Origin: an uncultured Rhodospirillales bacterium
Lineage (GTDB): Bacteria; Pseudomonadota; Alphaproteobacteria; UBA7985
Reading direction: 5' to 3'
Assembly (NCBI GenBank): GCA_963978305.1
Contig: CAXBRM010000001.1
Span: 1-49,830 of the forward strand
DNA length: 49,830 nt
Below the pieces are notes generated by a model. It saw only the letters and a list, made by a program, of their open reading frames with translations. It made no database searches and was not told the DNA's origin. This document shows positions 2,851-48,407 of this stretch, one piece after another. Positions within the stretch are counted from its first letter, which is position 1, and every line of letters starts with the position of its first letter. Position numbers and translations under genes: made by a program.

Positions 2851-5286
2851 TTAGCTATATTTGAGCCGGTATCGGCGCACGATGACAATCGCAACCATAT
2901 TAAGAACAAGCGTCGCTAGGAACAGCACTAGACCCAAACCAAACGCCGAGAGTGCTTCCGGTGTGTCTAGTGATAAGTCGCCCGTCAAAAACTCAACAAT
3001 TTGTACTGTGACAGTCGTCATGGGTTCCAATGGGTTGGCCGACAATTTAGCCGCGCGTCCCGCGGCCAAAACCACGATCATGGTTTCGCCAATCGCACGA
3101 CTGGTCGCCAGCAGGATACCCCCCATGATGCCTGGTAGAGCAGCGGGTAATAAAACTTTCAAAATGGTCTCGGACTTGTTGGCACCCAGGGCGAGGGAAC
3201 CATCACGTAGAGGGCGTGGCACTGATTTCAGGGCATCATCGCTCAGCGAGCTGATGAAGGGGATCAGCATGATACCCATGACGGAGCCCGCAACCAGGGC
3301 AGAGCGCCCAGCCATACTGTATCCGGTGATTGGCTCGCCAACTGTTTCCCAGATATCGCGGAACACAGGGCCGACGATCAGCAACGCAAAAACACCATAG
3401 ACGATCGTTGGCACACCAGCCAAAATTTCCAGAATAGGTTTGAAAATATTTCTAGTGGTCGCGCTGGCATACTCACTCATGTAAATGGCGGAAAATAATC
3501 CGATGGGGACGGCAAACAGCAAGGCGACCAGTGATACCATCATTGTGCCGTAAAAAACAGGCAGCGCGCCCAGCGAGCTTTTTCGCTCTGCGCCCTGTCC
3601 ATCGTTAATGCCGCCTTTGTTCCAAACCAGTTCGTTCAGAAATTCCTGGGCGGGTACTTGGAAAAAAAATAATTCGGCGGAGCCGAGCAAGGCTAGAACC
3701 AAGCCGACGGTCACCAAAATTGCGATGGCCGAAGCGGTGATCAGCAAAATGGTTGCACTGCCTTCATGGACCGAGCGCGCTTTTGTTTTCGGTCGGATGA
3801 AAACAACAGAAAGCAGCGCGCCCAAGACAACGGATCCCAAAACCCCAAAATAGATAAAGCGGCTAATCAAATTGCTTTGCAACATCCACTCTTTTGCCGC
3901 GTCTAAGTGTGCTGGCTTTGCTCGCACATCTTTCATAATTTCTGGCGTGATTTCGACGCCTTTACGGAGTTCGGCAATTAGGCGATCAACTTTACCACCA
4001 TTGGTGTCAATCAAGCCCTTTGGTGGCCGCCCAAACTCGGTGGCGACAAAGTTTTGCACCCAAGTCATCATCTCGGCCAGACTAACGATCGTCACAAGGA
4101 CAAAAACACTGGAGCCAACAAGCAGGATCAAAGATGGTGCCTTGTTTAAGGCAAAGCGTTCGCCCGATTGGTAAAGTACGACCAGTGATCCGGCCAGCAC
4201 GAGTAACGAGAAGATCCAGCCGCCAGCGCCCCATTGTGTGATGTGATGTAGAAAGACGATCCCGCTTATGCCACCACCAGCTAGCAACAGTTTACCGAAA
4301 AGGGCGCCAATCGGCCCGCGCTTCATCGATAAAATCCCACTCACCGCGAAACCAACAGTGGCGGCAATCGCCAGCCAATCGGGGAACGGGTTTTTCCCTC
4401 GTTCATCCGAGATAAGCGCCGCCTCAATACCGCTTGTTATTGCTTCGTTATTTACACTCCAGTTGCGCCAAATGCTAATGGCCCAAGACAGCAAGATAGC
4501 GATAAGTGACACGACGATCAGTGCGCGAATGATGCCTCCGCCAGCGCGTCCAGCAGCGATCCAGAAAAACACAAGCATTGCCAACAAAACAGCGAGACCA
4601 GAGCCGATCCAAACAAACCCAGTCAAAAACAGGGCCAGGGTTGTTGCCAGCAGACCCCCGAGGGCAGCTGTCTTGCTTTGCGGGCTGTGATATTGCTCCG
4701 GTGTCAATCGCCACAGGGCGACCGCCGCCATTAGCAGTGCAAGCCAAAACCAGCGTCTGGCAATGAATTTTTTGTCGAAAGCAAGGGTAAACCCTTCTTC
4801 GAATTGTTGAAGATCAGGCGCAATGTCTGTACCGAGAAAATAATGCGAGAAAAGCCCATTTGTCGCGCGACGCATGCCTTCATAATCAATGTTCAGTCCT
4901 TCGTAGGCCGTGACGACCAGACTGACAACTTCCATGTTGAGCGTTGTTCGCTGAGCATCCATCCAGGCGCTGCCGAATATCTGCCATAGCACGACAAAAA
5001 TGATTGGGGGGATAAACCAGCAAAAAACATGGAGAAAACCATAAAACCGCGGCAGATCGGGCAAACCAAAAAGATTGACACTTGTCGCTCGTGCTGCGGC
5101 CAAATCTTCAACCGATGACTTCACTCGGTTTGCACCGACAAAGAAAATCAAAAATGACAGCGCCGCCGCCATCGGTAGGGCCAGGATCCATGCGCCAAAG
5201 AACATGTTGAGGATCAGGAATAACGCAATCAGGCTTACTAATGGCACTGTTACGCCAATGCGCATCATGCCGCTTCCACTATTCAT
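2851..5286 (-). CDS. pstC: Phosphate ABC transporter permease PstC, giant form of 811 aa. The canonical core is the C-terminal ~250 aa.
   Basis: The C-terminal region GALPVFYGTMMVSLVALLFAVPIGLFSAIYMSEYA...[28 protein letters not shown]... matches the PstC permease core. It is preceded by ~550 aa with many hydrophobic segments. It lies between pstS and pstA. Confidence 0.9.
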   Translation of the reverse strand: MNSGSGMMRIGVTVPLVSLIALFLILNMFFGAWILALPMAAALSFLIFFVGANRVKSSVEDLAAARATSVNLFGLPDLPRFYGFLHVFCWFIPPIIFVVLWQIFGSAWMDAQRTTLNMEVVSLVVTAYEGLNIDYEGMRRATNGLFSHYFLGTDIAPDLQQFEEGFTLAFDKKFIARRWFWLALLMAAVALWRLTPEQYHSPQSKTAALGGLLATTLALFLTGFVWIGSGLAVLLAMLVFFWIAAGRAGGGIIRALIVVSLIAILLSWAISIWRNWSVNNEAITSGIEAALISDERGKNPFPDWLAIAATVGFAVSGILSMKRGPIGALFGKLLLAGGGISGIVFLHHITQWGAGGWIFSLLVLAGSLVVLYQSGERFALNKAPSLILLVGSSVFVLVTIVSLAEMMTWVQNFVATEFGRPPKGLIDTNGGKVDRLIAELRKGVEITPEIMKDVRAKPAHLDAAKEWMLQSNLISRFIYFGVLGSVVLGALLSVVFIRPKTKARSVHEGSATILLITASAIAILVTVGLVLALLGSAELFFFQVPAQEFLNELVWNKGGINDGQGAERKSSLGALPVFYGTMMVSLVALLFAVPIGLFSAIYMSEYASATTRNIFKPILEILAGVPTIVYGVFALLIVGPVFRDIWETVGEPITGYSMAGRSALVAGSVMGIMLIPFISSLSDDALKSVPRPLRDGSLALGANKSETILKVLLPAALPGIMGGILLATSRAIGETMIVVLAAGRAAKLSANPLEPMTTVTVQIVEFLTGDLSLDTPEALSAFGLGLVLFLATLVLNMVAIVIVRRYRLKYS

Positions 5287-18305: not shown

Positions 18306-19678
18306 TGGTTGAGCTGAAGCTTTACAACACACGGACAAAATCCGTTGAAGCTTTTGTCCCTTTTGATCGGCATAATGTTCGGGTCTATTTGTGCGGCCCC
18401 ACGGTTTATGATTTTGCTCACGTTGGCAATGCTCGATCGTTTGTTATGGGCGACAATCTGAATCGTTTGTTGCGGTTGCTCTATGGCGCCTCGCACGTGA
18501 CTTTTGTCCGCAACATTACTGACGTCGACGATAAAATCATCAAACGAGCCATTGAGACGGGGCTCACAATTCGTGAGATCACCGACGAAACCAATGCCGA
18601 ATTTCAGTTGGATATGCAGCGCTTGGGTGTCATTGATCCTGATCACCAGCCCAGAGCGACCGATTACATACCGCAAATGAGCGATATGATCCAAACCCTG
18701 ATCAGCAAAGGCCATGCCTACCAAGCTCCCAGTGGCGACGTTCTGTTCCATGTGCCAAGCATGCCTGCCTACGGCACGCTCAGTGGTCGCCATCAAGCCG
18801 ATTTAGAAGCCGGTGCACGGGTTGAGGTCAGCGAGCAAAAGCGTGACCCGTCTGATTTTCTGTTATGGAAAGCCGCGAAACCTGAAGAGCCAGCGAATGC
18901 CAACTTTGATAGCATCTTCGGAAAAGGTCGGCCAGGATGGCACATTGAGTGCTCGGCGATGGCAAAGGAGCTCTTGGGCGATACTTTCGACATCCATGCC
19001 GGCGGCATCGACCTGATTTTCCCTCATCACGAAAATGAAATTGCGCAATCCTGCTGTGCCAACGACTGTGAGCTCATGGCCCGCTATTGGCTCCATGGCG
19101 GCTTTTTGAATGTGAATGGCACCAAAATGAGCAAGTCGCTCGGCAATTTCTTCACCGTCCGCCAGCTTATGGATGAGGGTGTTGTGCCTGAAGCGATCCG
19201 CTATCAGCTGATGCAAGCACAATATAGCCAGCCCCACGACATCAGCCGGGACAAGTTGGATTTGGCGAAGGCTAAATTAGACGACTGGTATCGTGTTTTG
19301 GTGAATGCGAACCTGGTGGACGCTCAGAACCAGGAGCCTGCCTTGGAAGACGTCGACCCTCAAGCTTTGGCCACGTTGGCACATGACCTCAATACGCCCG
19401 GGTTTTTTGCACGCCTCGATCAACTCAAAGATCGCCCCGAGCTGTTCCGGGCAACAGCGAACTTGGTTGGTCTGTTGACACAAGAACCCGCAGAATGGTT
19501 CAAGGGCGATACCAGCTCACAAGAAACCCTCGAGATTGAAACTCTTGTGCAAGAGCGTATCGACGCGAAGAAGGCCAAGAATTTTGCCCGAGCAGATGAA
19601 ATTCGCGATCTCTTGACTGGTCGCGGCATACTGCTTGAGGACAAACCTGGTGGTTTAACCGAATGGCGAAAGGTGTAA
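18305..19678 (+). CDS. cysS: Cysteine-tRNA ligase
   Basis: LYNTRTK...VYLCGPTVYDFAHVGNARS (HIGH), GWHIECSAM and KMSKSLGN are present. ATG 18305 overlaps the gltX TGA (18303-18305) by 1 nt. The track start 18302 is a TTG one codon earlier. Confidence 0.95.
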   Translation: MVELKLYNTRTKSVEAFVPFDRHNVRVYLCGPTVYDFAHVGNARSFVMGDNLNRLLRLLYGASHVTFVRNITDVDDKIIKRAIETGLTIREITDETNAEFQLDMQRLGVIDPDHQPRATDYIPQMSDMIQTLISKGHAYQAPSGDVLFHVPSMPAYGTLSGRHQADLEAGARVEVSEQKRDPSDFLLWKAAKPEEPANANFDSIFGKGRPGWHIECSAMAKELLGDTFDIHAGGIDLIFPHHENEIAQSCCANDCELMARYWLHGGFLNVNGTKMSKSLGNFFTVRQLMDEGVVPEAIRYQLMQAQYSQPHDISRDKLDLAKAKLDDWYRVLVNANLVDAQNQEPALEDVDPQALATLAHDLNTPGFFARLDQLKDRPELFRATANLVGLLTQEPAEWFKGDTSSQETLEIETLVQERIDAKKAKNFARADEIRDLLTGRGILLEDKPGGLTEWRKV

Positions 19679-32862: not shown

Positions 32863-33165
32863 ATGTTGATCAATTGCCCATATTGCGGCCCCCGGCCCGA
32901 CAGCGAATTTAAGGTTAAAGGCAGCGCGGATATCTCAAGGCCTGCGCTTAACCCAGAGGCAACGTTCGATAACGCTATGTTGGAATATATCTACATGCGC
33001 AACAACCCGCGCGGTCGTCACTATGAGTTTTGGCACCATGAGGCTGGTTGCCGTCGCTGGTTGGTTGTTGAGCGCGATACCGAAAAGAGCCATGAAATCT
33101 ACAGCGTCAGGGATGCCAGCGTCGCACGCCCAGATGGCGAATTTGCAGGTGAGAACACGGCATGA
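32863..33165 (+). CDS. soxD: Sarcosine oxidase, delta subunit
   Basis: 100 aa. MLINCPYCGPRPDSEF...HHEAGCRRW is the Cys3His zinc motif typical of SoxD. It overlaps the soxA start by 4 nt. Confidence 0.9.
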   Translation: MLINCPYCGPRPDSEFKVKGSADISRPALNPEATFDNAMLEYIYMRNNPRGRHYEFWHHEAGCRRWLVVERDTEKSHEIYSVRDASVARPDGEFAGENTA

Positions 33166-38250: not shown

Positions 38251-39045
38251 TTAGGTCGTGCCAACCGAGACGGCCAAGTGCTGAGCGTTGAGGCGCTCTT
38301 TGAGTGCTTTGACTTTGTTCGCGCTGACGGGAAGGCTGGAGCCGTCGGTTAAAATGACCCTGTAGGCACGTCCCTCGCGTGAAAGTTTATCGATCGCGCC
38401 GAGCGCGACCCAGTGAGAGCGATGAATTTGGTAGCCGTCAACCGGGTGCATCTCGTCAACGGCATCGCGCAAGCGAAGCAAACAAAGCTCCGTTCCGGCC
38501 TCTGAGCGTACCGCAACGTAGTGATCTTGCGCTGACAAAGACAAGATATGCGAGGAGTGGTCGATTTGTTTCAACCGACGATAGAGCGCAGGCTGCGGAT
38601 CTGGCTGAGCGTTTGCCGCCACGGGACGTGGCTGGAGTTTTGATAGCAAAAAATATAGGGCGACGAACACACCGCTTGACGATGGCCCAATGTAGAAAAA
38701 GATCCAAAAAATTGTTTCCAAGTCTTCAATTGGCTGACCCAACGCGAGACAAATAAGCATGGTGACAAAGCCTGCCAAAGCACCGAAACCGACTGATAGT
38801 GCAATGATTGCCATCAAGTTGGACGTTTTTTGAACTTCAATGAACGCAAAAAAGAATGTGGCAACCACACCCAAGATCAGGATTTTGAGTGACCAGTAGA
38901 CCAATCGCACAGGCTCATCCATGAACAGAAATGTTCCAAAAGGTCCACTAAAAAAAGCCAATAGCGCCAGGATAGCCATGGCAAACCAAACGAGCGGATT
39001 GCTCAAGTATCGGCCTGAAATTCTGAACAGCTTCGCAACCAGCAT
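38251..39045 (-). CDS. Membrane-anchored LytTR-domain DNA-binding protein (4 predicted TM helices plus a C-terminal LytTR domain)
   Basis: The N-terminal ~135 aa contain four hydrophobic stretches: PLVWFAMAILALLAFF, LKILILGVVATFFFAFI, LMAIIALSVGFGALAGFVTMLICLAL and IFWIFFYIGPSSSGVFVALYFLL. The C-terminus ILSLSAQDHYVAVRSEAGTELCLLRLRDAVDEM...GYQIHRSHWVALGAIDKL...YRVILTDGSSLPVSANKVKALKE is a LytTR fold pattern. No receiver domain is present. Confidence 0.8.
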   Translation of the reverse strand: MLVAKLFRISGRYLSNPLVWFAMAILALLAFFSGPFGTFLFMDEPVRLVYWSLKILILGVVATFFFAFIEVQKTSNLMAIIALSVGFGALAGFVTMLICLALGQPIEDLETIFWIFFYIGPSSSGVFVALYFLLSKLQPRPVAANAQPDPQPALYRRLKQIDHSSHILSLSAQDHYVAVRSEAGTELCLLRLRDAVDEMHPVDGYQIHRSHWVALGAIDKLSREGRAYRVILTDGSSLPVSANKVKALKERLNAQHLAVSVGTT

Positions 39046-39187
39046 TTAAGTACCATTTCACGTATCGCGAGCCAGCTCGCTAACGCCCTCCGCGAATTAT
39101 TGTGTAACGTTTACGCATTTCACCTCGCCATTGCTGAGAAAAATAATTTATCATTTGTTTATCGTAAATTATAAACAACGGGTAGAT

Positions 39188-39304
39188 ATGAGGAATTCTG
39201 CAACAATTTCAACCTTGGTCATACATGTAATTTGTGCACTTTGGGTAATGCTGGCAACCTGGGGTTGGCGTTCGTGGCCTTTGAGGCGCCTGCATTTGAG
39301 GTGA
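39188..39304 (+). pseudogene. Decayed 5' fragment of a third DUF2141 paralogue (signal-peptide coding region only)
   Basis: ATGAGGAATTCTGCAACAATTTCAACCTTGGTC matches the first 33 nt of the 39751 gene (ATGAAAAATCTAGCAACAATTTCAACTTTGGTG) at about 26/33 positions. The frame stops after 38 codons. The same 3' repeat element that follows the intact gene lies about 100 nt downstream. Confidence 0.45.
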
Positions 39305-39405
39305 AAGATAGCGGGAATTTCAAGCTTTGTTGGAAACGTATGAAAATAAATAACTTTTGGGATCTAAGCTCGTTGATGCCGCTTTTCTGCGAAATATCCT
39401 GATAA

Positions 39406-39535
39406 GACAACCCAACCCAACGTTCTCCCCCGGAAGAAGCAGTTGCCCGTCCTGTCGGGTGGCTGCTTTTTCTTTGTACGATTGATAGCGCGATCGTCCC
39501 TGTCCTGGCGAGACTGAGCGCTGATGGGAACAAAC
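39406..39535 (+). repeat. Copy A of a ~130-170 bp local repeat (GACAACCCAAC...hairpin...GATTGATAGCG...TCGTCC..)
   Basis: It aligns by eye with 40274-40440, including identical GAAGAAGCAGTTGCCCGTC, with indels of 5, 1 and ~30 nt. Confidence 0.6.
39438..39475 (+). terminator. Intrinsic terminator-like hairpin inside repeat copy A
   Basis: The 12-bp stem is AGCAGUUGCCCG (39438-39449) / CGGGUGGCUGCU (39456-39467). It contains three G-U pairs that only pair on the plus-strand RNA. The loop is 6 nt and TTTTTCTTT follows. Confidence 0.6.
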
Positions 39536-39649
39536 GCCATAAGTTAGCTTGCAAATCGAAGGATCAGGTTTCCCAAGTATTGGTCGTGAATTCTCAAGAG
39601 GGCACGCCAGTTGGTGCTCCGCGTATCGTGAACGTGCTCTGGGCGTTCT

Positions 39650-39680
39650 TGGCGAATTTTAAGGACGCCCTGGCGAATTT
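39650..39680 (+). promoter_or_regulatory. Candidate LytTR-type operator: a perfect direct repeat TGGCGAATTT x2 with an 11-bp spacer (21-bp phasing)
   Basis: TGGCGAATTT occurs at 39650-39659 and again at 39671-39680. The repeat ends 71 nt upstream of the DUF2141 ATG. A TAnnnT hexamer (TAAGGT, 39709-39714) lies downstream and no good -35 is visible. It is ~600 bp from the divergent LytTR gene. Confidence 0.45.
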
Positions 39681-39750
39681 CACATCACATTTTTACAAAA
39701 ACGCAATTTAAGGTTTAGTTGTTTGAACTTTAGCAAAAAAAGGAGTGAAA

Positions 39751-40227
39751 ATGAAAAATCTAGCAACAATTTCAACTTTGGTGCTGATGGCTTTTGTGGC
39801 GCCTTTGGGGGCGTTCGCCCAGTCGTCAATAACAGTGACGACGGAAGTTGACACGCAACTCGGCAATATAGCTTTTTACTTGTTTGATGATGCGGGTTGG
39901 ACCCTTGAAGACGACCAAGAGATTCCTTACCAAGTTCTTTACAGAAATCTTCAGGTGCATGCGAGGCTCACCGAAAGCTCTGCAAACCTGAAATCATATA
40001 GTGTAACCTTTGAAGATGTGCCAGCGGGACGCTACGGAGTTTTCGTCAACCACGACCTAAATGGTAATTATGATATAGACTTTAAGCCAGACTGGACGCC
40101 TATTGAACCGCTGGGTTTTTCGAACAATCCACTCCCAGAACAGGTCAACTGGGATTTTGACCAGATTTCATTTGATGTGGCTGATGGCGAAAATGTTGAA
40201 ATTCGTGTCGACTTAAACACGCTATAG
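39751..40227 (+). CDS. Secreted DUF2141-family protein (paralogue 1)
   Basis: The signal peptide is MKNLATISTLVLMAFVAPLGAFAQ. DUF2141-like blocks are VPAGRYGVFVNHDLNGNYDID and EPLGFSNNP. ATG 39751 lies 5 nt after AGGAG. The track start GTG 39745 overlaps the RBS. Confidence 0.8.
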   Translation: MKNLATISTLVLMAFVAPLGAFAQSSITVTTEVDTQLGNIAFYLFDDAGWTLEDDQEIPYQVLYRNLQVHARLTESSANLKSYSVTFEDVPAGRYGVFVNHDLNGNYDIDFKPDWTPIEPLGFSNNPLPEQVNWDFDQISFDVADGENVEIRVDLNTL

Positions 40228-40273
40228 ATCCCCATAATCTGGTTTTGTTTTTCGCTTGAGGTCCTTCCTCACA

Positions 40274-40440
40274 GACAACCCAACGTTTTTCCCTAGAAGA
40301 AGCAGTTGCCCGTCTCCCGTTGGGCAGCTGCTCTTTCGACACGTGAATGATAGAGTCCTTGAGATTAGATCATGGCCTGGGTCGGCCCTTCGTCCGTCTT
40401 TGCTGGCATCTCTGAGAGCCATTGAACTCCGTCAAACATC
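40274..40440 (+). repeat. Copy B of the local repeat, 47 nt downstream of the DUF2141 paralogue 1 stop
   Basis: See copy A. It contains the equivalent hairpin, 40301-40311 / 40322-40332. Confidence 0.6.
40301..40337 (+). terminator. Hairpin of repeat copy B (weak or leaky terminator)
   Basis: The 11-bp stem is AGCAGUUGCCC / GGGCAGCUGCU with one G-U pair. It is followed only by CTTTC, so termination is probably inefficient. Confidence 0.4.
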
Positions 40441-40514
40441 CGCCAAAGTTCCAGCTATAGATAAAATTTGAGCCGAAATGGCAGGAGAAACTTTTTAATT
40501 GCGATAGAGGAAAA

Positions 40515-40964
40515 ATGATGAAAATTCTCGCGACTTTAGTGACCATTGCGCTTATCGGCTTTCAGGCTGCCGCCGCGCAATCGATCACCGTGACCACGAA
40601 CGTGGACCGTCTGGACGGCATGGTTACTGTAAAACTTTATAACAGTGCGGATGGTTGGGCCAAAGATGAGCCCATCAAGGTAGCTGTGGAAATCTTACCA
40701 GCCCAAGCGGCTGCGGGGGTACGGTCAAGCAGCCGTCGTGTTGTGTTTATTGATCTGCCGCCAGGGCAATATGCCGTTGGTATCCACCATGATCTCAACT
40801 ACGATCTGCGACTGAACACCGATTTTTTTGGCAAGCCTGTTGAACCGTTTGGCATCTCCAACAGCCCCAACTTGCAGCGGGGTAAGAAGCCGACGTTTAA
40901 CGAAGCGTCATTCACCTTGGCGAATCAGAACTTGCAGCTCTTGGTGCCGTTCTATGGTCAATAG
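40515..40964 (+). CDS. Secreted DUF2141-family protein (paralogue 2)
   Basis: The signal peptide is MMKILATLVTIALIGFQAAAAQ. It shares AQSITVTT.VD, LPPGQYAVGIHHDLN and EPFGISNSP with paralogue 1, at roughly 30% identity by eye. The start may be the second ATG at 40518. Confidence 0.8.
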   Translation: MMKILATLVTIALIGFQAAAAQSITVTTNVDRLDGMVTVKLYNSADGWAKDEPIKVAVEILPAQAAAGVRSSSRRVVFIDLPPGQYAVGIHHDLNYDLRLNTDFFGKPVEPFGISNSPNLQRGKKPTFNEASFTLANQNLQLLVPFYGQ

Positions 40965-41091
40965 AGCAACAGGTTACTAACGCTATTATGCTTGGGTGAT
41001 TGCGAGGCACTTGTCTGTGTGCCGTTGGTCTACTATCCAAGGTGAACCAAGCCAACTTGAGCGTTCTGCGCTCGCTGACACCCTTGAGCCG

Positions 41092-41847
41092 ATGTGCACT
41101 TACGCCTTTTCCTTTGATCCTGGCCACGATTGGCCGTTTGTTATCGCGGGCAATCGCGATGAACGGCAAGACCGGGCCTGGGCGGCGCCGGCTGCCCACT
41201 GGCCCGACCGCGAAGGCGTGGTCGGCGGCCTGGATCAGCTTGGCGGTGGAACGTGGGCTGGCATCAACCAACATGGCGTTGTCGCCTGCCTATTAAATCG
41301 CTGGGACACCCTTGGCCCAGCCGCGGGCAAGCGCTCGCGCGGCGAAATTGTCCTCGATGCCTTGGATTTTGCCGATGCCTGCGATGCCGCCGAAGCCTTG
41401 GCGGACCTCTCGCCTGACGCCTATCTGGGCTTCAATTTAATTCTGGCGGATAACCGTGATTGTTTTTGGCTTCATCTGCGCGCGGGCAGCGCTGTCCAAG
41501 TCAAGGCTGTCCGCCGCGGGATCCATCTGATTACCCATGGCGACCTGAATGAAATGGCAACACGGCGGATCGCCCGCTATCTGCCACAATTTCAAGCCTT
41601 GGGGCCGCCGGAGATGCCTGACACAATCGATTCCTGGAGTCACTGGCGAATGCTATTGACGGATCGCTCGCTTGATCCATCAGATGATCCGAAAAGCGGC
41701 TTGCTGGTCGAGATGCCCGAAATGAATTTTGGCACCAGTAGCCAAAGTTTTTTTGCCTTGCGGTCTATTGAGACTGTGGCGCGTGCTGGTGAGGTTGGCG
41801 TCTATTTTTTCGCTTCGCCACATAAACCATTAACGCGTGTGCTTTAG
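41092..41847 (+). CDS. NRDE-family (TANGO2-like, DUF833) protein
   Basis: It starts MCTYAFSF... and contains the eponymous AGNRDE motif, followed by GGTWAGIN. I chose internal ATG 41092 so that Cys is residue 2, as is typical of the family. The track ORF start is 40996. Confidence 0.8.
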   Translation: MCTYAFSFDPGHDWPFVIAGNRDERQDRAWAAPAAHWPDREGVVGGLDQLGGGTWAGINQHGVVACLLNRWDTLGPAAGKRSRGEIVLDALDFADACDAAEALADLSPDAYLGFNLILADNRDCFWLHLRAGSAVQVKAVRRGIHLITHGDLNEMATRRIARYLPQFQALGPPEMPDTIDSWSHWRMLLTDRSLDPSDDPKSGLLVEMPEMNFGTSSQSFFALRSIETVARAGEVGVYFFASPHKPLTRVL

Positions 41848-43741: not shown

Positions 43742-44497
43742 ATGCGCTTCCATTTTTTGTCCAGTAAGGCAGAAGCAGCTCAGGAAGCGATGCAGATGTT
43801 GGCTGAGCGCTATGGCCAGCACCCATTGAGCGAAAGCGACGTCGTTGTCAGCATCGGCGGTGACGGTCAGTTGCTGGATTGTCTGGGCGACGTCGGCGGC
43901 AAAAAGCCGGTTTTCGGCCTGAATAGGGGCACGATTGGCTTCTTGTTGAACGAGTACCGAACCCATGGCCTTGTTGAACGCGTCCGCTCAGCAAGAAAGG
44001 TTGTTATCCATCCGTTGGCCATGAAAGCGGAGTGTCTGGACGGCTCGGTTCATAATGCCCTCGCATTTAACGAAGTGGCTTTGTTTAGAGAAACCAGCCA
44101 AGCGGCGCATCTGGAGATTGATGTCGATCAAGTCCGCCGGATGGACCGTTTGATTTGTGATGGCGTTTTGCTGTCGACGCCTGCAGGATCGACGGCTTAT
44201 AATTTGTCGGCGCACGGACCAATCATTCCTTTGCGTTCCCGGCTAATGGGATTGACGCCGATTTCCGCGTTTCGTCCGCGGCGATGGCGGGGCGCCCTTT
44301 TGCCAGACGGCGCCCAAGTCCGCTTTCATGTTTTGGACCCCGAAAAACGCCGCGTTGCTGCGACCGCGGACTCATCAGAATTCAGGGACTGCTTTAGCGT
44401 GACGGTTGCGATGGATTTTTCCAGGTCCTACCATCTGTTGTTTGACGCCGATCAAGCGTTAGAGGAGCGGATTTTGCAAGAGCAATTCGCCGGGTGA
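43742..44497 (+). CDS. nadK: NAD kinase
   Basis: Contains the VVVSIGGDGQLL (GGDG) motif, NRGTIGFL, DGVLLSTPAGSTAYNLSAHGPI. Confidence 0.9.
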   Translation: MRFHFLSSKAEAAQEAMQMLAERYGQHPLSESDVVVSIGGDGQLLDCLGDVGGKKPVFGLNRGTIGFLLNEYRTHGLVERVRSARKVVIHPLAMKAECLDGSVHNALAFNEVALFRETSQAAHLEIDVDQVRRMDRLICDGVLLSTPAGSTAYNLSAHGPIIPLRSRLMGLTPISAFRPRRWRGALLPDGAQVRFHVLDPEKRRVAATADSSEFRDCFSVTVAMDFSRSYHLLFDADQALEERILQEQFAG

Positions 44498-46988: not shown

Positions 46989-48407
46989 TTATGAAAAGAC
47001 TTTGCCAGGGTTCAGAATACCCAGTGGGTCGAGTGCGCCTTTCAGCGTCTTCATGACACTGAGCGTGTCAGCATCGAGCCTTAAGGGAAGCTCTTCTCGC
47101 TTCTGACTGCCAATGCCATGTTCCGCGCTGAAACTGCCACCTAAATCGTGAACGAGATCGTGGATCGCCCGATTGAACAATATTGTATATTCGAAAAAAC
47201 GTTCACTAGACCAGCCAGCCGGTGCGGTAATGTTGAAGTGTAAATTGCCATCTCCGGCATGGCCAAATGGCGCAGGCTGGCAGCCTGGTAGTACTTCGGT
47301 TGCTTTTAGCATTCCCTGTTCAAACAAGTCGGGGATTGCGCTTAAAGGCACGCTTACGTCGTGTTTGATGCTTGGACCTGCGTGCTTCTGGCAAAGCACA
47401 ACCTCTTCGCGAATAAGCCAAAGCGCGTCACGCTCTGCCTCGCTTTGTGCAATCACAACATCGCGAACGCTTGCCATATCTTCGCTGAGACGCACAAGGC
47501 TCGCGTAGATTGTCTCTGTTTGCTGATCGACGGCGCCAAACAAACTGATCTCGCCGATAATTGTAAACGCAGGGCAGGCGAAGGGCAAACGGGCAATTGT
47601 GCTGTGATGCTCGACGGCCTTTAGCGCTGGCTGACTGATTATTTCAAAACTTGTGACTTGGTCTCCAACTGTTGAGCGCAGGACATGTAAAACCGTCATG
47701 GCGTCTTTGGGGTTGTCGATGGCGATCGCAAAAGTGACGTGGCCGTGCGGTTTTGGATAAAGTTGAAGCGCTGCGCCGGTAATAATGCCAAGTGTGCCCT
47801 CGCTGCCGATGAATAACTGGCGGATATCCATCCCACGGTTGTCTTTGCGCAGACCCGACAAATTTGATACCACTCTCCCGTCGGCCAAGACAGCTTCGAT
47901 CCCCAAACATTGAGACCGAATGTTGCCATACCGCAAGACATTGATACCGCCAGCATTGGTCGACAGATTGCCGCCAATCTGACAACTCCCTTTGGCACCC
48001 AAGGAGAGCGGAAACAAAAAACCGGCGTCATCGGCAGTCTCTTTGATCGATTGTAAAATACAGCCGGCATCGACACAGACTGTCGCGTTCGTCGGGTCGA
48101 TAAAGCGAATCTTGTTCATGTGTTTAAGGTTGAGGACAACTTCATCGCCAACAAGCGGGATTGACCCCAGCACGAGTCCAGTATTGCCCCCCTGTGGCGT
48201 TATGCTGACGCGGTGCTTCGTTGCGAGCCGGAGCGCGGCCTGGACCATGGTCGTCGTGCGTGGCAGCAAGACAGCCGGGGTTTCAGTCCGTTTCAGTCCG
48301 CGCCAGTCAGCACAGTAAGGTGCTGTGTCAACAGGGTTCGTCAGAATGTCTGTCGGATCAAATCCAGCGGCGTTCAGATCTGAGAGGTAAGCGGCAATTT
48401 TTGACAT
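46989..48407 (-). CDS. FAD-linked oxidase (GlcD / D-2-hydroxyacid dehydrogenase family)
   Basis: 472 aa with an FAD_binding_4-type N-terminus (VLLPRTTTMVQAALRLATKHRVSITPQGGNTGLVLGS) and a C-terminal FAD-oxidase domain ending GSFSAEHGIG...LDPLGILNPGK. Confidence 0.85.
   Translation of the reverse strand: MSKIAAYLSDLNAAGFDPTDILTNPVDTAPYCADWRGLKRTETPAVLLPRTTTMVQAALRLATKHRVSITPQGGNTGLVLGSIPLVGDEVVLNLKHMNKIRFIDPTNATVCVDAGCILQSIKETADDAGFLFPLSLGAKGSCQIGGNLSTNAGGINVLRYGNIRSQCLGIEAVLADGRVVSNLSGLRKDNRGMDIRQLFIGSEGTLGIITGAALQLYPKPHGHVTFAIAIDNPKDAMTVLHVLRSTVGDQVTSFEIISQPALKAVEHHSTIARLPFACPAFTIIGEISLFGAVDQQTETIYASLVRLSEDMASVRDVVIAQSEAERDALWLIREEVVLCQKHAGPSIKHDVSVPLSAIPDLFEQGMLKATEVLPGCQPAPFGHAGDGNLHFNITAPAGWSSERFFEYTILFNRAIHDLVHDLGGSFSAEHGIGSQKREELPLRLDADTLSVMKTLKGALDPLGILNPGKVFS

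Follow-up and report, generated by a model that had tools for sequence, protein, structure and literature searches.

A predicted LytTR operator upstream of a DUF2141 gene

We analyzed a 49,830-nucleotide stretch of contig CAXBRM010000001.1 from an uncultured Rhodospirillales bacterium (hereafter, the window), focusing on a 10-bp direct repeat, TGGCGAATTT, that occurs at 39650–39659 and 39671–39680 on the + strand, 21 bp from start to start. The repeat precedes a gene of the DUF2141 family and lies near the divergent gene for a membrane-anchored LytTR protein. Our results indicated that the decamers very probably mark a conserved functional cis-element and that the adjacent LytTR protein is likely to be their reader, i.e., that they belong to its operator. 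The predicted control site has been conserved in many marine bacteria. The element, a probable LytTR operator with phased direct repeats, is of an ordinary kind; however, it belongs to a nearly uncharacterized family of regulators, and the comparative evidence that documents it is unusually clean. An initial annotation, made from the window sequence alone, had interpreted the repeat as an operator for the divergent LytTR protein, and the computational tests run here support that interpretation with corrections, as explained below.

A string search bore out the exact 10-bp direct repeat and its 21-bp phasing. The DUF2141 start codon (ATG) is at 39751, which leaves 70 nt between it and the end of the second decamer. 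The repeat belongs to the second copy (copy B) of a duplicated cassette, and the first copy (copy A) holds the only intact 5′ end of the LytTR gene. The main elements are as follows:

39649–39659, + strand: site 1 of copy B, TTGGCGAATTT; fits TTSRCGMATT, holds the first decamer, 14.6 bits
39670–39680, + strand: site 2 of copy B, CTGGCGAATTT; 21 bp after site 1, holds the second decamer, 12.6 bits
39056–39070, + strand: Box 1 of copy A, TTTCACGTATCGCGA; near-palindromic, 11 nt ahead of the LytTR start codon
38251–39045, − strand: gene for the membrane-anchored LytTR protein (264 aa), divergent from DUF2141
39751–40227, + strand: intact DUF2141 gene with a signal peptide (Pfam DUF2141, 2.6e-14); likely target of copy B

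Taken alone, the decamer repeat is weak evidence and just marginally unusual; the comparative data give it significance. One exact pair at a spacing of 20–22 bp was observed in the window, against 0.16 expected, and exact 10- or 11-mers recur 10–40 bp apart at five places, where 7 overlapping 10-mer pairs compare with 2.3 expected. The other exact short-range direct repeats are TCATTTTCGC at 1353/1390 (37 bp apart), ATCGTTTGTT at 18436/18462 (26 bp apart), the 11-mer CTTGTTGAACG at 43942/43970 (28 bp apart), and the 11-mer GTTTCAGTCCG in tandem at 48280/48290 (10 bp apart). Copies of the decamer with one mismatch are not enriched in the window (12 vs. 7.2 expected), and a third exact copy, which has no partner, is located at 33135, close to the end of the open reading frame (ORF) upstream of soxA. 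Readings of the decamer as a sigma-54, extracytoplasmic function (ECF) or sigma-70 hexamer were checked by eye, and none fits.

Conservation between the two copies and in close relatives

The region is a tandem segmental duplication in which copy A spans 38981–∼39550 and copy B 39551–∼40340, at an offset of 561–570 bp (repeat finding and pairwise alignment). The two copies align nearly gap-free, and both contain two sites 21 bp apart. The corresponding features are as follows:

39089–39098, + strand: degenerate site 1 of copy A, TCCGCGAATT (paralogue alignment and matrix)
39110–39119, + strand: degenerate site 2 of copy A, TTTACGCATT; 21 bp after copy-A site 1 (alignment and matrix)
39617–39631, + strand: decayed Box 1 of copy B, CTCCGCGTATCGTGA; 31 bp before site 1 (paralogue and family alignments)
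39551–39600, + strand: remnant of the LytTR 5′ end in copy B; 70% identical to 38981–39030 at an offset of 570 bp

The Box 1 of copy B has retained the right arm, CGTGA, and lost the left one. In the register of the decamers, copy A reads CCGCGAATTA at 39090–39099 and TTACGCATTT at 39111–39120, each matching the decamer at 7 of 10 positions, again 21 bp apart. A degenerate copy of the repeat had previously been placed at 39083–39098. The degenerate site there is real, but it aligns with site 1 (39643–39659) and not with site 2, and the second degenerate site of copy A had been overlooked. The offsets on either side are 561 and 563 bp, so copy B does not exceed copy A by 21 bp and the decamer repeat is not a recent slippage insertion. 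We also considered a micro-conversion between sites, in view of the ACGCCCT that stands before both copy-A site 1 and copy-B site 2, and rejected it, because the extended left flank RSCGYYY of the window clade precedes both sites and is the better explanation.

Close relatives were obtained by exact-protein look-ups. Copy A, with its decayed gene, is the same in L007, a 99%-identical contig. In the nearest other relative, represented by the TARA Oceans contigs L001–L006, the LytTR protein is 64% identical and the gene order agrees with that of the window: purB, LytTR, divergent DUF2141 genes, DUF3955, DUF2141, a TANGO2-like gene, and purC. These contigs differ in how many DUF2141 cassettes they carry, the 169-aa gene of L002–L005 being absent from L006. 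Upstream of its first two DUF2141 genes, L002 contains TCGCGAATTT-N11-TCACGCATTT and TGGCGAATTT-N11-TCACGCATTT. Since these pairs share the layout found in the window, the two-site arrangement and the 21-bp spacing are older than the split of these lineages. By this comparison, the ancestral pair is imperfect, GCGAATTT and ACGCATTT, and the perfect identity in the window copy B appears to be derived. Thus, the identity of the decamers emphasized in the initial annotation is real, but it is a lineage-specific property. The three differences between site 2 of the window and the ancestral TCACGCATTT coincide exactly with S, R and M, the degenerate letters of the consensus.

The orthologous B regions of the window and L002 are 50% identical overall, and their longest identical block, GGCGTTnTTGGCGAATTT, is site 1. 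The hexamers GGGCGT (39641–39646), ACGCCC (39665–39670) and TAAGGT (39709–39714) were all found where the initial annotation had placed them. However, the 6-bp inverted repeat that GGGCGT and ACGCCC form around the decamer is missing from the orthologous region of L002. We rejected it as an element, and it is best taken as a chance occurrence.

Three boxes in distant DUF2141-linked relatives

A scan of GTDB representatives yielded no LytTR relative above 38% identity, and a scan of JGI metagenomes added a single informative locus (L088). The distant clade analyzed here consists of 13 relatives with 35–38% LytTR identity (L008–L010, L012–L015, L088, and L168–L172), all 13 of which have kept a divergent DUF2141 gene. 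We aligned 17 LytTR–DUF2141 intergenic regions, with LytTR identities of 35–99%, using Box 1 as the sole anchor. Box 1 is present in all 17; it reads TTTCACGCTTCGTGA in the distant clade, its general form is the near-palindrome TTTCACG-N3-CGTGAAA, and the copy-A sequence TTTCACGTATCGCGA is its sole exact match in the window. Anchoring on Box 1 alone brought two further blocks into gap-free register in 17/17 regions. When the resulting 34 sites were re-registered on their CG cores, the consensus was 5′-TTSRCGMATT-3′, with a single TG as the only exception to the CG core and no exception to the A located three bases downstream of the G. Site 1 and site 2 are 21 bp apart in 14 regions and 20 bp apart in the other 3, and Box 1 lies 30–31 bp from site 1. 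The top strand of Box 1 contains a third co-oriented copy of the motif, and Box 1 also carries an inverted one. The exact string TTGGCGAATTTT was found in L012. The decamers and their spacing are conserved more strongly than their flanks both in the 64% relative and in the 13 relatives at 35–38%, as a comparison proposed in the initial annotation had anticipated for a functional site.

Box 1 was also considered as an RNA hairpin. Inspected by eye, its variants mix compensatory, wobble and mismatch pairs, and wobble pairing would be confined to the strand for which transcription is unlikely; the hairpin was rejected as the primary explanation.

Two of the distant loci show variations of the array. 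In L014 (2662–2965; labelled as a Gammaproteobacteria metagenome-assembled genome, MAG), an extra GC-rich insert of ∼190 nt lies between the LytTR start and Box 1, and the mutual spacing of the three boxes is unchanged despite it. In L015 (2785–2932; a Rhizobiaceae MAG), the variant ACGCAATA occurs three times, with spacings of 21 and 35 bp, at the site 1 and site 2 positions and at one extra position. This variant suggests that the motif co-varies with the regulator.

Weight matrix search in the window

We constructed a weight matrix from 26 sites of the distant clade only, i.e., with the window and its close relative excluded. Among all pairs with a spacing of 20–22 bp on both strands of the 49.8 kb, the pair 39649/39670 ranked first with 27.2 bits, the copy-A pair 39089/39110 was second with 22.1 bits, and the next pair scored 17.1 bits. 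The best pairs of 200 Markov-simulated windows had a mean of 16.9 bits (standard deviation, 2.1; maximum, 23.6). A matrix derived from distant relatives alone thus picks the decamer pair as the best in the window, in agreement with the operator interpretation.

These results bear on the simplest alternative, namely that the repeat is a functionless chance match or a recent 21-bp slippage duplication. The frequency of exact 10-mer pairs in the window (five places at 10–40 bp; 0.16 expected at 20–22 bp) and the lineage-specific identity of the two copies are in its favor. However, copy A, the two L002 regions and the 13 distant relatives all contain both sites at this spacing, implying that the layout long predates this genome, the copy-B region is not longer than copy A by the 21 bp that slippage would have added, and the pair exceeds the best of every simulated window under a matrix built without it. 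We regard this alternative as highly improbable; the comparative data in effect refute it. This demonstrates that a marginal 10-bp repeat can be validated through comparison with paralogues and orthologues.

A weak pair, TTAACGAAGC and TTGGCGAATC, was also found at 40897–40926 on the + strand (20 bp apart, 16.7 bits, within the chance range of the simulated windows). The pair falls within the 3′ end of the last DUF2141 gene, a short distance before the TANGO2-like gene at 40996.

The array in the wider LytTR family

The matrix was then applied to 142 further LytTR loci, unused in training, in a fixed orientation and over the 200 nt that precede the LytTR gene. Pairs scoring 14 bits or more were found at 39% of these loci, compared with 0.1% of 852 control windows from the same loci, and the scores of the two groups differed strongly (Mann–Whitney p = 6e-57). 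In 130 non-redundant loci, nearly all co-oriented spacings were 20–21 bp (39), 31–32 bp (52) or 51–52 bp (39). Judging from these spacings, the family array is one of three sites separated by three and two helical turns.

The upstream neighbors of the family loci are diverse and include genes for DUF2306 membrane proteins, TPR, SBP_bac_5, GST and LepA proteins, and proteins without a Pfam match; the divergent gene at related loci is DUF2141/RPE65 or DUF2306. Because the neighbors differ, the LytTR gene is the one constant. The phased array tracks this gene across ∼130 further loci, which supports the proposal of the initial annotation that the LytTR protein reads the repeat.

Several observations weigh against the operator reading. 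The related loci are phylogenetically non-independent, and single-site matches as good as those of the decamers occur elsewhere in the window at the level expected by chance. The placement of the sites relative to a −35 hexamer (see below) rests on weak hexamer matches. The motif of HigX, a membrane LytTR factor compared below, is absent from the window with up to 3 mismatches. Furthermore, in the wider family (about 45 loci among L011–L166), site 1 has the form cTTC-GTG-AAy, in which the GTG is an in-frame start codon; a Shine–Dalgarno-like GGAG/GGGGA lies between sites 2 and 1, 7–9 nt upstream; and Box 1 falls on LytTR codons ∼9–13, which encode (A/T)-x-R-E. Since the array overlaps the LytTR start in these loci, constraints on coding or translation could account for part of the family-wide conservation and for the fixed 31-bp spacing.

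Carried to its conclusion, this would mean that the boxes are a relic of the leader and start region of the LytTR gene, maintained by constraint on translation or RNA, with no role in DUF2141 transcription. The in-frame GTG, the Shine–Dalgarno-like sequence and the coding Box 1 just described agree with such an origin, as does the fact that copy B demonstrably holds a remnant of the LytTR 5′ end. In addition, one can conceive of alternative RNA pairings, because the CGYGAA core found in all three boxes is complementary to the left arm of Box 1. Nevertheless, we consider this explanation unlikely. In the window and the DUF2141-linked clade, including its 13 distant relatives, all three boxes are non-coding, yet they are the best-conserved blocks. 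The GTG is missing from 4 of the 13 site-1 copies of the distant clade, whereas the CG core never changed there. Copy B and its L002 orthologue have no LytTR gene to serve, but both retain consensus sites; in these two lineages, whose LytTR proteins are 64% identical, it is Box 1 and the flanks that have decayed. Where Box 1 is coding, its central triplet is free (CTT, AAG, ATG, or CAG), whereas the arms of the palindrome do not change and Arg is encoded by CGT or CGC alone. The TTC before the start codon is conserved in the wider family, and the non-coding site 2 is still 20–21 bp away. Finally, direct repeats phased at two and three turns have a DNA-binding rationale and no RNA rationale, and Rfam gave no match in 38800–41100 at E ≤ 1. 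In the wider family, the same bases may carry both the operator and the coding constraint.

The membrane LytTR protein

In the window, the LytTR gene lies between purB and the divergent DUF2141 genes. Pfam places the LytTR domain at residues 165–252 (2.3e-14). An AlphaFold2 model of the protein, built on 15 homologues (predicted local distance difference test score, 87.5), shows a short N-terminal helix followed by hydrophobic helices at 17–41, 44–72, 77–101 and 109–137, a disordered Pro/Gln-rich linker at 141–148, and a C-terminal beta fold at 167–254. With Foldseek, the C-terminal domain matched the LytTR structures 3D6W, ComE (4CBV), and DNA-bound AgrA (4XQJ/3BS1); the target-normalized TM-scores were 0.65–0.68 for 3D6W and AgrA, and about 0.30 for full-length ComE. 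The sequence identity of the domain to the AgrA and ComE LytTR structures is 14–20%. Sequence searches of the PDB and NCBIfam returned nothing useful for naming the protein, and the fold comparison was informative. The Pfam, AlphaFold2 and Foldseek results thus agree with the initial description of a divergent membrane LytTR protein next to the repeat, with four predicted transmembrane helices, a linker and a LytTR fold. Given the four predicted helices and the basic N-terminus, the LytTR domain should face the cytoplasm.

An ATG within Box 1 (GAAATGG) opens a 17-codon upstream ORF on the − strand (39003–39056; read by hand). This ORF overlaps the LytTR start codon out of frame, and L002 has a shorter equivalent.

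Comparison with characterized LytTR systems

The operators of AgrA, ComE and PlnC are paired direct repeats of ∼9 bp with ∼12-bp spacers, located upstream of the −35 hexamer, and these regulators include their own locus among their targets. The element in the window resembles them in its paired and phased direct repeats, and the predicted LytTR domain superposes on the AgrA and ComE structures. In contrast, those proteins are phosphorylation-dependent response regulators with other repeat sequences, and no kinase or peptide genes occur at the locus studied here.

More generally, LytTR regulators bind two, and sometimes three, repeats of 8–11 bp with spacers of 11–13 bp (PMC4847170). The co-oriented 8–11-bp repeats, the 11-bp spacer and the adjoining LytTR gene in the window agree with this sequence pattern. 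YpdB binds GGCATTTCAT-N11-GGCATTTCAT in the Escherichia coli yhjX promoter (PMC4847170), which likewise consists of two 10-bp direct repeats with an 11-bp spacer and a 21-bp periodicity; its T-rich core, CATTTCA, resembles the ancestral site 2 with its flank, ACGCATTTCAC. However, YpdB is a soluble, phosphorylated response regulator, whereas the protein studied here has four predicted transmembrane helices and no receiver domain, and the motif here is centered on an invariant CG and accompanied by a third box 31 bp away.

The operators of RcoM1 of Paraburkholderia xenovorans and of CoxC, a membrane-bound alphaproteobacterial protein of Afipia carboxidovorans, each comprise three 8-bp direct repeats about two turns apart, TTCNNGCA for RcoM1 and TTNNNGCN for CoxC (PMC11347149). 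Each protein is a one-component sensor whose LytTR domain is C-terminal, and each has three co-oriented sites, as in the present case. The consensus TTSRCGMA fits TTCNNGCA in many copies as TTCACGCA (C/C variants only), and the window decamers are the TTGGCGAA variant. The differences are as follows. First, the spacing here is uneven (31 + 20/21 bp), and Box 1 adds an inverted copy of the motif. Second, the sensor domains are haem-PAS or seven-transmembrane MHYT in those proteins and a four-helix bundle here. Third, their targets are cox genes, whereas the target here is DUF2141 (with RPE65 in relatives). Additionally, the CoxC operator overlaps the −35 hexamer, and CoxC is a repressor relieved by carbon monoxide (PMC11347149), whereas the sites here appear to lie upstream of the candidate −35.

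Regulators that combine a LytTR domain with four transmembrane helices occur widely among Alphaproteobacteria, and HigX (CCNA_03131) of Caulobacter crescentus, reported in 2026, is the sole experimentally studied one that we found in the literature. It is a transcription factor with four transmembrane helices and a LytTR domain that acts from the membrane (PMC13384398). HigX and the protein studied here are both alphaproteobacterial and share (here by prediction) the four helices, a low-complexity linker and the LytTR domain. However, the HigX motif from chromatin immunoprecipitation sequencing is an unspaced 8-bp inverted repeat, ATGTTASC/GSTACCAT (PMC13384398). Compared by published description, its co-conserved gene encodes a COG4188 hydrolase instead of DUF2141. 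There were no Caulobacterales among the best 80 LytTR relatives. On these sequence grounds, the element should not be filed as a HigX-type site.

Candidate promoters and a proposed mechanism

The promoter-like sequences around the sites are as follows:

39692–39697 and 39714–39719, + strand: tentative candidate DUF2141 promoter, TTTACA-N16-TTTAGT (read by eye)
39683–39656, − strand: promoter-like GTGAAA-N16-TAAAAT; overlaps both decamers (consensus scan)
39123–39096, − strand: promoter-like GTGAAA-N16-AATAAT; copy-A equivalent, overlaps the sites (consensus scan)

The initial annotation had described only a poor −35 upstream of the DUF2141 gene. Read by eye, TTTACA at 39692–39697 is better than this description allows, but the consensus scan found no + strand promoter near copy B, in line with it. 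In the distant clade, a conserved TTG hexamer lies 12–16 nt after site 2, and a conserved CA-containing hexamer follows 17 nt on. The minus-strand match over the decamers is a candidate for a promoter, or a relic promoter, of the LytTR gene.

The minus-strand matches raise the question of whether the boxes could be functional DNA that LytTR does not read, i.e., the −35 and −10 elements of a leftward promoter or the site of another factor. Such matches overlap the sites in both copies, and with just 49.8 kb of the genome in view, other regulators are possible. We nevertheless judge this to be an improbable explanation. The conserved letters (CG, flanking TT, and A) are not features of sigma-70 hexamers, the promoter-like reading fails in the distant clade (where the site 1 flanks are TGTTAT, TTTGAT, and GTTTTT), and two near-identical repeats cannot be both a −35 and a −10. 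Moreover, the array follows the LytTR gene across unrelated neighbors, and the motif resembles experimentally defined LytTR operators (PMC11347149; PMC4847170).

Returning to the LytTR operator, we propose the following mechanism. The decamers would be the two promoter-proximal half-sites of an operator for the neighboring one-component membrane regulator. Being two helical turns apart, they would present the same face of the DNA, with the third box three turns nearer to the regulator gene. The cytoplasmic LytTR domains of the membrane-anchored protein would occupy the phased sites 1 and 2, and also Box 1 where it is intact. The sites, which the candidate promoter geometry would center near −57 and −78, upstream of a weak −35, would mediate activation of DUF2141. 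Sites upstream of a weak −35 are the usual layout for LytTR activators, and from the sequence we lean slightly toward activation over repression. Occupancy over the 5′ region of the regulator gene itself would result in autoregulation, which is likely because the sites overlap the minus-strand promoter-like matches and, in the wider family, the regulator 5′ region. The signal, presumably sensed by the four-helix membrane domain, would be membrane-borne or lipophilic. The predicted operator offers defined half-sites, a defined spacing, and two natural variants (the strong copy B and the decayed copy A) for binding and reporter work.

Genes next to DUF2141 and a broader reading

DUF2141 is a family of no known function that is linked here to a dedicated regulator. 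In L008, L013 and L169–L171, the gene that follows DUF2141 in the same orientation encodes an RPE65-family carotenoid oxygenase. Similar ORFs of 502 aa follow it in L009, L010, L012, L014 and L015, and in L172 a CrtI-like FAD/amine-oxidase gene takes the place of RPE65. The window clade has no RPE65 gene after DUF2141; DUF2141 is multiplied instead. In Sphingomonadales, DUF2141 is reported to be co-located with crtG (PMC5989583), and the position of DUF2141 beside carotenoid-cleavage-type oxygenase genes in the relatives fits this observation. It is a matter of speculation that the RPE65/CrtI-like neighbors and the crtG co-location point to a lipophilic, possibly carotenoid-derived, cue.

A broader reading, which we offer tentatively as a possibility of some weight, is that a three-site operator (TTSRCGMA, 31 + 20/21 bp, on one helical face) is shared by hundreds of alphaproteobacterial LytTR regulators with four transmembrane helices. 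In most members, the array would be superimposed on the 5′ untranslated region, the GTG start and codons ∼9–13 of the regulator gene, so that one set of bases would act as operator, as translation start and as coding sequence. A downstream shift of the start codon in the DUF2141-linked clade would have freed the array as a portable module that was duplicated together with the cassettes. A regulon of DUF2141 with an RPE65-type oxygenase or a CrtI-like oxidase would make the protein a sensor of carotenoid-derived or lipophilic compounds.

Structure of the duplicated cassette

Each cassette has the order LytTR 5′ end, intergenic region, DUF2141, and strong intrinsic terminator. The remaining features are as follows:

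39188–39304, + strand: decayed DUF2141 paralogue of copy A; 38-codon ORF in which the signal-peptide region alone is recognizable
39432–39473, + strand: intrinsic terminator at the end of cassette A; 18-bp stem and U tract, −28.4 kcal/mol, z = −3.8
40296–40337, + strand: intrinsic terminator at the end of cassette B (fold scan and repeat family)

The copy-A DUF2141 gene is missing about 300 bp. It is likewise decayed in the 99%-identical contig L007, whereas its L002 counterpart is intact (147 aa). Hence, the consensus sites adjoin the intact gene (copy B), and the degenerate sites adjoin the decayed gene (copy A). The cassette-A terminator is repeated after the next cassette and conserved in L002, and with the terminator at 39432–39473 upstream, the intact DUF2141 gene needs its own promoter within 39474–39750. 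Based on the sequence comparison, the predicted operator, DUF2141 and the terminator form a module that is duplicated in tandem in this genome.

A block running from GACAACCCRAYGTYYTCCC to GAAGAAGCAG precedes the GC-rich 18-bp stem of the terminator (39406–39473 and 40270–40337; 3075–3160 on the − strand of L002). It is kept between the paralogues and in the 64%-identity relative, which exceeds what the terminator alone would need.

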